From: an uncultured Methanomicrobiales archaeon | GTDB taxonomy: Archaea; Halobacteriota; Methanomicrobia; Methanomicrobiales; Methanospirillaceae | DNA length: 64,000 bases | Direction: 5' to 3' | Assembly (NCBI GenBank): GCA_963758915.1 | Contig: CAVWXH010000003.1 | Span: 224,001-288,000, forward strand | In this document: piece after piece, positions 9,630 to 36,293 of the stretch | Layout: each line of letters begins with the position of its first letter | Numbering within the stretch: position 1 is the first letter of the stretch | Translations under genes and position numbers: made by a program | The notes under the pieces: model-generated | Seen by the model: the letters and a program-made list of their open reading frames with translations, nothing else | Database searches by the model: none | What the model was told of the DNA's origin: nothing

Positions 9630-10643
9630 CTACCCCTGTTTACTCTGGACGCTCATGAACTCGATAACCGGCAGACGTATGTGGTGTTCGCCCTGCCTGA
9701 TTGCCGGCCTGATCCGTATAAGTCTCTTTACCGGGCCGGGAATAGACCCTTTAATCAGAACATACGGGCTTCTCAGAAGTCCGTAATGAAGGAAACCACC
9801 TGCAGGAGTAACATCAGCGGCGTTATCCCCCATTTTCAGGACACGCTTGTTGAACTCGGTACGCTGCTGGTAACCCAACTGGCCCATCTGCGGGACCTGC
9901 CAGCGGATGTGGTGCGGGGTCCACGGGCCAAGAGTACCAACGTGCCGCTTTTTTCCGCCCCGGGAGTGCTTTCTCTTCCTTAACGCGGTACCCCACCTCT
10001 TTACGGCGCCCTGGGTACCTTTCCCCGTGGTGATCGCGGTTATATCGGCATATGCGCCGGGCTGTATGACCTTGTCAAGCGATACTTCCTTTCCAAGGAG
10101 ACCTGTTGCAAACTCATACTGCTGTTCAACAGTCCCGCCTGCCACTTTTGTTTCCATGAGGTCTGGGACCTTCTTCGGAACACCGGTAAGCCCGGCAGGT
10201 ACTGTGTACATCAATGCAAAGATCTCTGTCACCTGTCCGGCTGCAAGGGCGTCAGCAATACATTTTTTTGCCGCTTCGCCGGTGTATTCCTTTGGCAGGT
10301 TGATCCTGCGGCCGAGGTTGCTGTCAAGCTCTTCGGCCCATACTTCACAAAGTGGATGTTTTCCATAGGTATCACGGACATAGGCACGAACCGCGGCAAC
10401 CCTCATGGAAGGAACTTCAATAATGGTAACGGGTACCATTATGTCCTTACCTTCTGTCGGGCTGTTCTTGTGATCGTCCACCATGATAACATGCGTCATT
10501 CCCACTTTGTAACCTGCAAAACTCTGCAGCAGGGGTGCCCCATTATATTGCGGCCATGACTGGTATTTTGGAATCGGGCTCTTTGCACGCTTTCGGGGGC
10601 TGTATGCAAGAGAACCTCTGCGCGGCCTGTTTATTTTTGGCAT
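9630..10643 (-). CDS. rpl3: 50S ribosomal protein L3
   Basis: [33 protein letters not shown] motifs; first gene of operon. Confidence 0.98.
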
Positions 10644-11255
10644 GTTTCAATCAATCCTTCGTTCGCATTTCGTGACCATAACCGGGTTTTCCCGGTACGA
10701 TCGTTTTCGGAACTCCCTGGTGACAGGTGTCCGTTCTGGACTTTCCGGGGATTTCCACCGGATCCGAGACTGATGTGATGCTCCACGCTCAGTACCTGAT
10801 ATAACCCGCGATCGTTCGTATTTCAGACCTCGTCCCTTCCGTATCTCCCCGTTTTCCGGGAAAAACACAAGGGATGTGTCTTTTTATTGGCCCTCCAATG
10901 GACCAGGCTGGTATTACCAGACTACCTGTCTCGCGAATAGATCCTGATATTCATGCGTCCCCTGAAAGGAGTAACAGTCTTTTCAGGGCGGGCCGTTTTG
11001 GTACTCGTCCACCCTTGACGCACTCATCAGATCCAGCTATGTCAGCCCGTTGTGAATTGTTCCACAACTCCTTCTCGGTAACTCCCATGGAGGAGTTACT
11101 CACCTATGAGAAATCATATGGCCGCAGCAAGGTACCGCCTTCACCATCAAACGCAATCTGCATTGTATGCACATAATTGCCTTTTTATGGATGGCCATGT
11201 ACCCTACCCGTCGTCAAATCCTCATATAGGCTTCCATAACAATTGGAGGGAAGCA
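10644..11255. ncRNA. Candidate long structured RNA / 5' leader of the rpl3 operon
   Basis: No credible ORF; about ten hairpins and nested helices (e.g. 10681-10696, 10908-10920, 10954-11022 enclosing 10960-10988, 11078-11099, 11159-11171); lies between a TATA-like box and rpl3. Confidence 0.55.
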
Positions 11256-11256
11256 A

Positions 11257-11268
11257 ATATATATTTAT
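11257..11268 (-). promoter_or_regulatory. Putative TATA box for the ribosomal protein superoperon leader
   Basis: Minus strand reads AATAAATATATAT, immediately after the T-tract (A-run at ~11286-11299) that follows tfx. Confidence 0.5.
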
Positions 11269-11337
11269 TGTAAACACGGGCATTCAAAAAAAAAGAAAAC
11301 AGATTTCTGGTAACGGGGTTTGCGGAAAATATTACAC

Positions 11338-11742
11338 TTATCCGAAATATAATTCGCCTTCCTCGTTAATATACACTTCAATATTCTCACGCACCTGCCT
11401 TGCCTTGAACCGTTCGGGAGTGGACTCCCGGATTTTGTTAATCAGGGAGATTGTGTCATATTTCACTTTTATACCAAGCTTTTCCGCTTCTTTATAAACA
11501 AAAGGGGAGACTTCAAGCAGGTCAGTGCCTGCATGTATCGTGCAGAGGTGAGTGGCATCAAGGGTATACAGGAAATCAAGGGTATCTTTTGCCCGCCTGA
11601 TATTCTCCATTGCAGATTTTTCGATTGTGCAGACATTCGCCTTGGATGTATCGATAATATCTGCGATCTGCTGCTGGGTCAGGCCCTGTTTCCTGTACCT
11701 GAGCACCTCTTTCTGGCGATCCGTAAGCAACCCCTCTTTCAT
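11338..11742 (-). CDS. tfx: Tfx family DNA-binding protein
   Basis: LLTDRQKEVLRYRKQGLTQQQIADIIDTSKANVCTIEKSAMENIRRAK HTH typical of Tfx. Confidence 0.88.
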   Translation of the reverse strand: MKEGLLTDRQKEVLRYRKQGLTQQQIADIIDTSKANVCTIEKSAMENIRRAKDTLDFLYTLDATHLCTIHAGTDLLEVSPFVYKEAEKLGIKVKYDTISLINKIRESTPERFKARQVRENIEVYINEEGELYFG

Positions 11743-11923
11743 ACCAGATCTCTTTAACTACAAATAATTAAACGCTTTCGGTTAACTGGTAAACTATCTT
11801 TGATAGGGCGCATAGATAAATTTTCAGATTCGGAGTGAAAACACCTTTAGGTCGAGGCAGATTTCAAAATGTTTATATTTATCAGGTCATATAAACGTGA
11901 TATAAAATTTTTGAGGTGTAAAC

Positions 11924-12763
11924 ATGGTAGTTAAAGTAGGAGTTGCGAAATTAGGCAACATTGCAAGCGGCGTAATGGCCGAACTTCTTCTCGACGAACG
12001 AGCAGACCGTGAGGACATGCAGACATTTATGGCAACGAGCGGAACCAAGCTCCAGCCGGAAGATATCGAACGTGTAGTTTCCAATATGAAGGCATGGAAA
12101 CCTGACTTTTGTATCGTGGTTTCCCCGAATGGTGTCCTTCCAGGCCCGACCGGTGCCCGTGAGCAGCTCGCTGCGGCAGGTATCCCGGTTGTCGTTATCA
12201 CTGATGATGTAACAACCAAGAAAGAATGGGCAGAGCTCAAGGAGAGCAAGTTCGGTTACATCATCATGAAGGCAGATGCCATGATTGGTGCACGCAGGGA
12301 GTTCCTCGACCCGGTCGAGATGGCAGACTACAATGGCAACCTTGTGAAAGTCCTCTCGGTCACCGGTGCGTTCCGCAAGATGCAGCTCGCACTTGATGAA
12401 GTAATCAACCAGGTCAAGGCCGGCAAGAAGGGCGCAGAACTCGTCCTGCCAAAGGTCGTCATGACCTCCGACAAGGCAGTTGCGGGAGAATTCTCAAATC
12501 CCTACGCACTCGCAAAGGCACGTGCGGCATACGAGATTGCCTCCGCTGTTGCAATGGTCAACGTAAAAGGCTGCTTTATGACGAAGGAATGGGAACAGTA
12601 CGTCCCGATTGTTGCAAGCGCCCACGAGATGATGAGGGCCGCCACAATCCTCTGTGACGAGGCCCGTGAACTTGACAAGGCAGTCGATGGTGTAATCCGC
12701 AAGCCACACAAGAAAGACGGTGTGCTTGTCGCTAAGACCAAGCTGGTCACAAAACCAGAGTAA
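11924..12763 (+). CDS. mtd: F420-dependent methylene-H4MPT dehydrogenase
   Basis: KLGNIASG...[36 protein letters not shown] motifs. Confidence 0.97.
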
Positions 12764-13214: not shown

Positions 13215-14141
13215 CTATTGGTTTTTCCTGTACCATGCTCCAAGGTCTTCGGGGAGCGTAAGGATAACAGGTTCCAGGTGGAGCCTTTCCATGAATGCGG
13301 AATCCGCCAGTGACCGGGCATTAGGGTTAATCCTTGAAATTATCGAGCAGAATGCCCTGTATCCACGATCCGGACCGCACTTGTCAAAGAACAGCGAAAG
13401 ATTGAACGCATGGGTACCAAGGTCCCGGTAGAGGCCGATGACAGAAAGGATCCCCTCAATAAGGGTATCAAGATAGTTTTCGGAGTCTTCCAGGGTTGCC
13501 ACCGGCAGGACCCCCCTGACTTCGCGTTCTCCAAGGGGCACAGCATGTGCAGTCCAGCAAATTTCATCCCCGAAAAGGTACCGTTCGGACCCTTCTTCGT
13601 GCTCCCTCCATGCGTCCCAGTAACACCTGCCATGGCGCTCCAGGTAACGCTCACCATTATTCATATACATCCCGGCAACTACCGGCGCTTGTTCATCCGC
13701 AAGCCCCTGGAGGTGGGGGTGTGCAAGACTGGCACCCGCTGACGGCAGATAATTCCAGTTAATACTCGGGTAGCCCCCGGCCTTGGACAACGAACATACC
13801 TGGGCCATAAAGGCATCATACAGCTGTTTTTTATTAAAAAACTCCACAAAGTGCTCAGATGTAATTACAGTAACCGTGTGATAAGAGGCAAAAGGGTACA
13901 GGTTAGGAAACGTTATACTCTCCCCAAGGCAGATCCGTCCACCACCGGGAAATTCAGGGGTCACTGAAAATACCTGGTCCGGACAAAATGGACAGCCATC
14001 CGAGTCAGGAGAATAAGAATAGGGCACATCTAATCCCCGCTTGGTCCGGTCCGGGCTGATCCTGCACCGAAGTCCGGTCAGCTTCTCCATGCGGTACTGG
14101 AGGACCGAATTTTCCAGTTGCAACTCCCGTATCGTAAACAT
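13215..14141 (-). CDS. GalT-like (HIT superfamily) nucleotidylyltransferase
   Basis: CPFC Zn motif, FPNLYPF, AGASLAHPHLQ (HxHxQ) active site. Confidence 0.85.
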   Translation of the reverse strand: MFTIRELQLENSVLQYRMEKLTGLRCRISPDRTKRGLDVPYSYSPDSDGCPFCPDQVFSVTPEFPGGGRICLGESITFPNLYPFASYHTVTVITSEHFVEFFNKKQLYDAFMAQVCSLSKAGGYPSINWNYLPSAGASLAHPHLQGLADEQAPVVAGMYMNNGERYLERHGRCYWDAWREHEEGSERYLFGDEICWTAHAVPLGEREVRGVLPVATLEDSENYLDTLIEGILSVIGLYRDLGTHAFNLSLFFDKCGPDRGYRAFCSIISRINPNARSLADSAFMERLHLEPVILTLPEDLGAWYRKNQ

Positions 14142-19715: not shown

Positions 19716-19787
19716 GGATCCATAGGGTAGAGGACATCCTCTTGGGCTTCGAACCCAAGGACGCGGGTTCGATTCCCGCTGGGTCCG
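19716..19787 (+). tRNA. tRNA-Arg(TCG)
   Basis: Acceptor GGATCCA/TGGGTCC, anticodon arm TTGGG-CT-TCG-AA-CCCAA, T-arm GTTCGATTC; CCA not encoded; T-tract downstream. Confidence 0.95.
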
Positions 19788-27870: not shown

Positions 27871-27943
27871 AGCCCGGTAGTGTAGCGGTCAATCATCCGA
27901 GACTCTGGATCTCGGGACAGCAGTTCGAATCTGCTCCGGGCTA
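27871..27943 (+). tRNA. tRNA-Gln(CTG)
   Basis: A1-U72 acceptor AGCCCGG/CCGGGCT typical of archaeal tRNA-Gln; anticodon arm CGAGA-CT-CTG-GA-TCTCG. Confidence 0.95.
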
Positions 27944-32828: not shown

Positions 32829-32915
32829 GCTGAGGTTGTCTAGTCCGGTAAGGCGCAGGCCTGGAAAGCCTGTGGGGCGTCCAGCCCCTCGGGAGTTCAA
32901 ATCTCCCCCTCAGCG
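32829..32915 (+). tRNA. tRNA-Ser(GGA)
   Basis: Acceptor GCTGAGG/CCTCAGC, anticodon arm CAGGC-CT-GGA-AA-GCCTG, long variable arm. Confidence 0.95.
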
Positions 32916-36219: not shown

Positions 36220-36293
36220 GGGCCCGTAGCATAGCCCGGTGGTGCGCCCGGCTGATAACCGGGAGGTCATGTGTTCGAATCACATCGGGCCCA
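36220..36293 (+). tRNA. tRNA-Ile(GAT)
   Basis: Acceptor GGGCCCG/CGGGCCC, anticodon arm CCCGG-CT-GAT-AA-CCGGG, TTATAAA box upstream. Confidence 0.95.

Follow-up and report, generated by a model that had tools for sequence, protein, structure and literature searches.

A structured leader of an archaeal rpl3 operon, centred on RF03135, is probably the relic of a PF02598 gene

We analyzed a 64,000-nt stretch of DNA from an uncultured Methanomicrobiales archaeon (the window, taken at its whole length) and concluded that the minus-strand segment ~10644-11236 is probably the 5' leader of the rpl3-rpl4-rpl23-rpl2 operon and the remnant of a PF02598/COG2106 gene, with a role that is most plausibly cis-regulatory. 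We observed homology to this gene, loss of its open reading frame (ORF), conservation and covariation at the level of RNA, and contiguity of the leader with rpl3 in RNA libraries. In most related lineages the gene holds the same RNA element. An origin as the relic of such a gene was absent from an earlier account of the region, made by a model from the letters of the window and its translated ORFs (the sequence-only reading). The features are listed in Table 1.

Table 1. Positions of the leader elements and of the adjoining genes in the window
Feature	Position	Strand	Basis or remark
Tfx-family DNA-binding protein gene	11338-11742	minus	PF14601; directly 5' of the leader
TATA box of the leader/operon promoter	11257-11265	minus	aligns with TTTATAT-type boxes across the window's order
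Predicted transcription start region, conserved GGAAGCC	11229-11236	minus	~592 nt 5' of the rpl3 ATG
P0, 5' strand, at the transcript 5' end	11217-11230	minus	duplex energies; pairs with 11103-11114
Variable 5' hairpin domain, in place of the lost N-terminal gene half	11115-11216	minus	poorly conserved outside the genus
P0, 3' strand, just before Pa	11103-11114	minus	duplex energies
Hairpin Pa, gtaactcc/ggagttac	11078-11099	minus	8/8 pairs with two-sided changes; 89-97% of cells paired
Single-stranded block S2 (CGAGAAGGA), REG codons of the intact gene	11069-11077	minus	conservation profile
Hairpin Pb, gttgtg/cacaac	11049-11068	minus	6 pairs, 100% paired, 5/6 with two-sided changes
Linker S3, conserved	11035-11048	minus	alignment
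Extension of RF03135, four pairs	11031-11034 with 10939-10942	minus	
RF03135 (L4-Archaeoglobi) motif: P1, P2 and two hairpins	10944-11030	minus	cmscan
Block S4 (ATTCGCGAGAC), YSR codons of the intact gene	10928-10938	minus	conserved across order and phylum
Hairpin Pc, ctggt/accag	10908-10920	minus	5/5 pairs with two-sided changes; 97.5% paired
Relic reading frame, central part of PF02598, three in-frame stops	10931-11086	minus	tblastn of intact proteins, residues ~107-163
Variable 3' spacer, in place of the lost C-terminal gene half	10660-10907	minus	low conservation past the genus
Candidate anti-SD block, genus-invariant	10767-10788	minus	genus-level RNAalifold pairs it with the SD/AUG region
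Conserved Shine-Dalgarno (SD) region and rpl3 start codon	10641-10659	minus	conservation profile
uL3 (rpl3), first gene of the r-protein operon 3' of the leader	9630-10643	minus	PF00297, 290.6 bits

Results

Locus and coding capacity

The folded region 10644-11255 is bounded by the Tfx gene and rpl3, and the genes of uL4, uL23 and uL2 follow that of uL3 on the minus strand. The Tfx gene was found beside rpl3 in 55 of the 61 loci fetched from the window's order (duplicates included).

The longest frames in 10644-11255 had 73 and 50 aa on the minus strand and 100 aa on the plus strand, and in a Pfam scan of these three frames none matched at E<=0.1. When leaders of different genera were compared, no sense-strand frame was common to them; only four matches were seen, antisense and weak. 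The statement of the sequence-only reading that the region holds no credible ORF is thus borne out by frame lengths, by the Pfam scan and by the comparison across genera.

Three coding candidates were considered and rejected. Conserved small ORFs were dismissed because none was shared on the sense strand and none had a Pfam match. A leaderless mini-ORF at an ATG near the transcription start was dismissed because this ATG is not conserved and, at intact loci, does not share the frame of the gene. In family f5 of the order, a short OB-fold ORF that might have survived was dismissed because of single-nucleotide indels between its members, in an alignment judged by eye.

On the plus strand, 11924-12763 encodes an F420-dependent methylenetetrahydromethanopterin dehydrogenase (PF01993 MTD, 363.6 bits), an enzyme that identifies the archaeon as methanogenic. 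A 308-aa ORF at 13215-14141 (minus) had no Pfam family at E<=1e-5, and four tRNA genes were located by an Rfam scan on the plus strand (19716-19787, 27871-27943, 32829-32915 and 36220-36293).

Promoter, conserved regions and transcription

To map conservation, we aligned the spacers between tfx and rpl3 from 54 distinct loci of the window's order. Beyond the genus, conservation covered the TATA/start region (~11270-11218), a core of ~200 nt (~11105-10910), the SD/start region (10659-10641) and little else; the stretches 11216-11115 and 10907-10660 were variable.

A TATA-like word followed after 18-20 nt by a GGAA(G/A)CC start region was present in 48 of the 54 leaders, as counted with an ad hoc regular expression composed once the alignment had been seen. 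By this conservation the TATA-like box proposed earlier at ~11257-11268 is real. Judging from the TATA spacing, transcription likely starts near 11235 and yields a leader of ~592 nt, in agreement with the earlier estimate of ~590 nt. The same TATA box and start region are kept in front of intact genes and of ORF-less leaders alike, while the predicted leader length was 396-622 nt in the ORF-less loci vs 884-1016 nt in the gene-bearing ones.

Across the order, conservation of the ribosome-binding region of rpl3 reached well past a simple GGAGG-type core, the sequence being AGGATTGATTGA or nearly so, and this suggests extended pairing with some partner. Sequestration of the SD by the candidate anti-SD block was considered and rejected: the duplex energies were no better than those of shuffles (z from -2.9 to +1.4) and there was no clear covariation.

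Metatranscriptome Logan contigs from two studies spanned the rpl3 coding sequence (CDS) and the leader unbroken (10444-11050 and 10450-11024), and further RNA contigs covered 10870-11102 and 11021-11125; such assembled contigs show neither strand, ends nor level, and none of them reached into the initial ~110 nt of the leader as predicted. In RNA libraries, contigs thus connect the leader that had been supposed with the coding sequence of rpl3. The stretch 11154-11800 was free of RNA contigs, a gap that has no bearing on the transcription start or on tfx.

A known Rfam family at the centre of the leader

In a cmscan search, the centre of the leader matched the full RF03135 model (positions 1-85 of 85) with 40.7 bits, above the gathering score of 34.5; a local search gave an E-value of 1.9e-6. 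There is one copy in the genome. Its 3' end lies 300 nt before the rpl3 ATG, and it stands upstream of the uL3/uL4 operon on the same strand.

The multibranch domain described in the sequence-only reading is this motif (10944-11030). The reading had taken the region for an undescribed large RNA and had named a cmscan match to a known Rfam family as a finding against that view; with RF03135 above its gathering score, the view did not hold. It had also left the functional strand undecided. Since the RF03135 match, the promoter and the orientation of the operon agree, we assign it to the minus strand.

RF03135 was published by Eckert and Weinberg (2020; PMC7247131) as the L4-Archaeoglobi ribosomal protein leader. 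Table 1 of that paper gives L4 as the ligand "by prior", the genes rplC, rplD, rplW and rplB, Archaeoglobi as the lineage, and the rating "?".

The extended core

The minus strand of the leader had a minimum free energy of -225.4 kcal/mol (z -4.59) and the plus strand one of -196.1 kcal/mol (z -4.48), with no dinucleotide shuffle as low in either case among the 20 made per strand. Dense folding, as noticed earlier, is thus found on both strands when checked against shuffled controls.

We built a covariance model (R1) from eight same-genus sequences with a hand-set structure of 200 positions and 53 pairs. The resulting alignment held 52 matches from 53 loci, including one spurious weak partial match within an rpl3 CDS (L023, E 0.0094). 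In this alignment, standard pairs occupied 94.4% of the cells, a level that none of 500 shuffles attained (76.1% after shuffling) and that fell to 37-43% in controls with slid partners, and two-sided changes occurred in 43 of the 53 pairs (52 sequences); since the sequences were fitted to the model, the covariation counts lean towards the structure. The gap between the core pairing and the slid controls is large in spite of that. An RNAalifold run on a plain MAFFT alignment recovered the invariant helices only, with the variable stems misaligned, and was superseded by the model-based alignment.

Within RF03135, two-sided changes were seen in 6/6 pairs of P2 and 10/10 pairs of P4, the 11-bp stem. 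The hairpin Pa is specific to the window's order; elsewhere in the phylum, most families show a deletion over most of it. For P0, the mean energy of the cognate duplex was -14.9 kcal/mol compared to -10.0 kcal/mol for non-cognate ones, a value reached by 0 of 10000 permutations among 21 lineage representatives; this helix was not seen in family f5.

Six of the helices listed in the sequence-only reading had covariation behind them (gtaactcc/ggagttac, gttgtg/cacaac, ctgat/atcag and tgcgtc/gacgca as P1 and P2, the 11-bp stem and ctggt/accag). The hairpin at 11117-11200 (covariation term +0.98; 2/46 pairs with two-sided changes) and most helices of 10660-10907 were unsupported beyond the genus. 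For the 5' domain, genus-level RNAalifold did give a long hairpin, with no covariation support. The idea of a structured ~590-nt leader stands, therefore, while conservation past the genus is limited to ~200 nt. The RF03135 core is here a structure of ~200 nt, larger than the Rfam model.

Could the conserved sequence act as DNA, for instance as a promoter inside the leader or as a binding site of a transcription factor? The blocks S2 and S4 are conserved with no predicted pairing, and a gene of a DNA-binding protein, Tfx, lies upstream in the 55 of 61 loci counted above. We consider this very improbable: compensatory changes in 43/53 pairs are a signature of RNA, the G-U pairs are strand-specific, and a conserved promoter is already present ~130 nt upstream of the core.

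Among 151 genomes of the window's order, RF03135 was detected in 85 and the extended model R1 in 114. In one family (f6), R1 was found in 0 of 29 genomes and RF03135 in 10 of 29; several of these ten matches fell below the cut-off and were only 68-78 nt long. What family f6 carries looks like a reduced form of the element, and from these counts the full core is dispensable in some lineages.

The host gene and its distribution

In a phylum sample of 151 genomes, RF03135 was found in 98 and PF02598 in 87. In 84 of the 98 genomes the PF02598 match enclosed the motif, and the gene was the immediate 5' neighbour of rpl3; in no PF02598-bearing genome of the sample was it found outside the gene. The 14 genomes with RF03135 and without a PF02598 match comprised 11 from the window's order and three from one genus of another family. 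Three genomes had PF02598 present with no RF03135 match.

In all 30 loci fetched, the motif was spanned by a frame that ran for at least 700 nt with no stop. In other families the motif was located within a frame of ~255-330 codons, and the frame ended 3-78 nt before rpl3 in the seven cases inspected. The one motif-spanning frame that was scanned matched PF02598 (Methyltrn_RNA_3) with 222 bits. Haloferax volcanii, used as a control genome, had matches to both RF03135 and PF02598.

In the window's order, PF02598 was present in 7 of 151 genomes, always at the rpl3 locus and always enclosing the motif, and on RF03135 these seven genomes outscored all others of the order. A six-frame search of the window's genome, which is 94% complete, gave no PF02598 match at E<=10.

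We also observed four genomes of the phylum sample in which PF02598 was split in two pieces (G219:C8, G191:C1, G207 and G247). In G219 one piece had an in-frame TGA, in G191 the two pieces overlapped in different frames, and in G207 and G247 each piece was on a contig of its own. Frameshifts at an early stage of gene decay may account for the splits, or else breaks in the assembly.

The distribution of the motif bears on the idea that the ~200-nt core is released as an independent non-coding RNA acting in trans, with a position ahead of rpl3 that is only historical. The core is indeed compact, closed by helices, strongly conserved and present in one copy per genome. Still, the RNA contigs of two studies run continuously from the core into the rpl3 CDS, no conserved terminator-like U-tract follows the core, and every occurrence of the element was at the rpl3 locus (none of the 84 in-gene cases was elsewhere), so that we regard such an RNA as improbable. 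A U-tract attenuator 3' of the motif was rejected on the same count of T-runs: runs of at least five T were not conserved, being present in 8 of 54 leaders overall and in 4 of the 10 from the window's genus.

Traces of the gene in the leader

In the window, the promoter, the neighbours and the embedded motif are the same as at intact loci, and residues ~107-163 of the protein can be traced. The relic frame still reads YREGVV...RIYSR, with three stops; YREGVV and RIYSR are the readings of S2 and S4 in intact genes. In tblastn searches of the window's leader, the order's own proteins gave matches with three stops at E 0.018-0.065, and the proteins of other families gave a best E of 0.048.

When ORF-less leaders were searched by tblastn with the order's proteins, residues ~100-184 only were detected, bar three weak matches that started earlier (query residues 73-94, E 0.021; 81-139, E 0.054; 89-103, E 0.2). 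The catalytic N- and C-terminal parts of the protein were undetectable in these leaders. From its central position, the surviving piece would be the OB-fold insert of COG2106; an OB-fold insertion in this family was described by Tkaczuk et al. (2007; PMC1829167).

RNA-level selection and repeated loss of the gene

The length of the motif was compared between genomes with and without the gene. Within genes only 84, 88, 91, 94, 97, 100 and 103 nt were seen, while in ORF-less genomes all residues modulo 3 occurred (5/5/4).

In intact genes, the same codon was used at identical residues with a frequency of 0.64 over the element vs 0.47 upstream and 0.45 downstream, with peaks of 0.71 and 0.73 at the two ends of the element. 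This comparison included 30 of 35 intact genes (rows >90% identical were dropped) and is a crude test, as the pairs are non-independent.

A quick uL3 tree of 58 rows showed four changes between the intact and the ORF-less state, two of them forced by starred (well-supported) branches. These changes are read as losses because the outgroups are intact and a regain at the same site is implausible.

A further example comes from one genus of another family (loci L107-L109 of genomes G205, G185 and G271), where PF02598 is missing and the motif is shortened to 75-81 nt. The motif and its flanking blocks are located ~430-460 nt upstream of rpl3, along with small remnants of the protein, some of them with stops. 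Congeners of these genomes have an intact PF02598 gene.

These patterns indicate that selection is acting on the RNA structure, which was retained after the death of the gene. Given its stops and its homology to the central part of the gene, the core could also be a neutral pseudogene remnant, in which the similarity is sequence still to decay. We find this hardly credible: the N- and C-terminal parts can no longer be detected, yet the core has blocks that are at least 90% identical across families; the helices are preserved by two-sided changes; and the same part survives in lineages separated in the tree.

Discussion

Proposed history and function of the leader

In the ancestral state, as we reconstruct it, the rpl3 operon would have been headed by a PF02598/COG2106 SPOUT RNA-methyltransferase gene with RF03135 in its central part, an arrangement still found in most other members of the phylum. 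In the window's genome the reading frame has been lost, while the promoter, the transcript 5' end, the ~200-nt core and the rpl3 ribosome-binding site were retained. The retained core consists of P0, Pa, Pb, RF03135, S4 and Pc.

Tentatively, and with somewhat less assurance than we have in its origin, we propose that the core acts in cis on the downstream ribosomal-protein genes, most plausibly by binding a protein encoded in the operon. A role of uL4 as the ligand is a published guess, made by analogy. The core is 300 nt from the rpl3 start here and 380-530 nt upstream of it in intact operons; at a distance of 300 nt it cannot directly occlude the rpl3 ribosome-binding site. A signal may be passed on through the folding or the stability of the mRNA. 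Local alignment of the 211-nt core with the 23S rRNA of the same genome scored no better than shuffles (22 vs 21.3 +/- 2.6; 73 of 200 shuffles at least as high), so that no mimicry of the rRNA at the sequence level was seen.

The main rival to protein binding is a role in processing or stability, in which the core would set the half-life or the 5' end of the r-protein mRNA by guiding cleavage or protection and would sense no protein; in intact operons the core would then uncouple this mRNA from the methyltransferase message. In favour of this is the distance of the element from the ribosome-binding site, too great for direct action. A weak hint in the same direction comes from the two RNA contigs that extend furthest upstream, which stop close to where the core starts (11102 and 11125), but contig ends are not RNA ends. 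The single-stranded blocks S2 and S4, on the other hand, resemble a protein-binding site, and we judge a pure processing element to be unlikely.

A more general reading goes beyond the cis-acting leader of the window. RF03135 may be no classical leader but an intragenic RNA module of the rpl3 operon that is functionally independent of its host gene and constrains synonymous sites; in several separate lineages it would have outlived the gene and turned into a long 5' UTR, with P0, Pa and Pb added. We consider this possible rather than probable. If it is true, RNA may be part of what holds COG2106 and the rpl3 operon together across archaea, and archaeal r-protein feedback can operate from inside an upstream coding sequence.

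Implications

The relic origin explains an unusually long and conserved 5' leader in a compact archaeal genome. It also asks for RF03135 to be re-read, as most of its sampled members are inside coding sequence and not in an untranslated leader. That the structure outlasted its host gene more than once amounts to a natural experiment, which argues for a function at the RNA level, rated uncertain originally. Two matched systems become available for archaeal r-protein feedback: the ORF-less leader, which is free of coding, and the intragenic form in the tractable Haloferax volcanii.

The gene itself has been placed in ribosomal-protein operons by Grosjean et al. (2008; PMC2584109), where the COG2106 protein HVO_2565 is predicted to be the 23S m3U2619 methyltransferase. 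From the gene counts, most of the window's order appears to be without this predicted 23S m3U methyltransferase.

Comparison with known systems

The element of the window is like the published RF03135 in that it covers all 85 model positions, on the same strand and 5' of the rplC-rplD-rplW-rplB operon. It differs in its size, since the structure here is ~200 nt long with P0, Pa, Pb, Pc and S2-S4 in addition. The family was published as an Archaeoglobi leader (PMC7247131), whereas in 84 of the 98 sampled genomes it is inside the PF02598 CDS; as a true untranslated leader it is found mainly in the window's order. Our literature search found no paper that links RF03135 to the COG2106/PF02598 gene, with the qualification that the supplement of PMC7247131 may mention an overlap with genes. 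The leader is an enlarged, ORF-less variant of a known candidate leader, and the new part is its proposed origin as the fossil of a methyltransferase gene.

With the living PF02598/COG2106 gene (MTH1, structure 1K3R; HVO_2565) the leader shares the position 5' of rpl3, the promoter and the similarity to the central part. It differs in that the frame is closed by stops, Pfam finds no match, and neither the N- nor the C-terminal domain can be detected.

In Escherichia coli, the leader of the S10 operon is a structured RNA regulated by L4. A structured RNA in front of a uL3/uL4 operon is the likeness, and it is the analogy behind the L4 label. The two RNAs, however, have no known relation in sequence or structure, no conserved U-tract is present here, and the element of the window is hundreds of nucleotides away from the first r-protein gene and would be intragenic by ancestry.

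A non-coding RNA born of a dead protein gene is known from mammals, where Xist arose from Lnx3. The likeness is that a protein gene is lost to decay and a portion of the transcript persists in a role at the RNA level. The difference is that, in the rpl3 leader, the RNA structure would predate the death of the gene, and was thus unmasked and not created by it.
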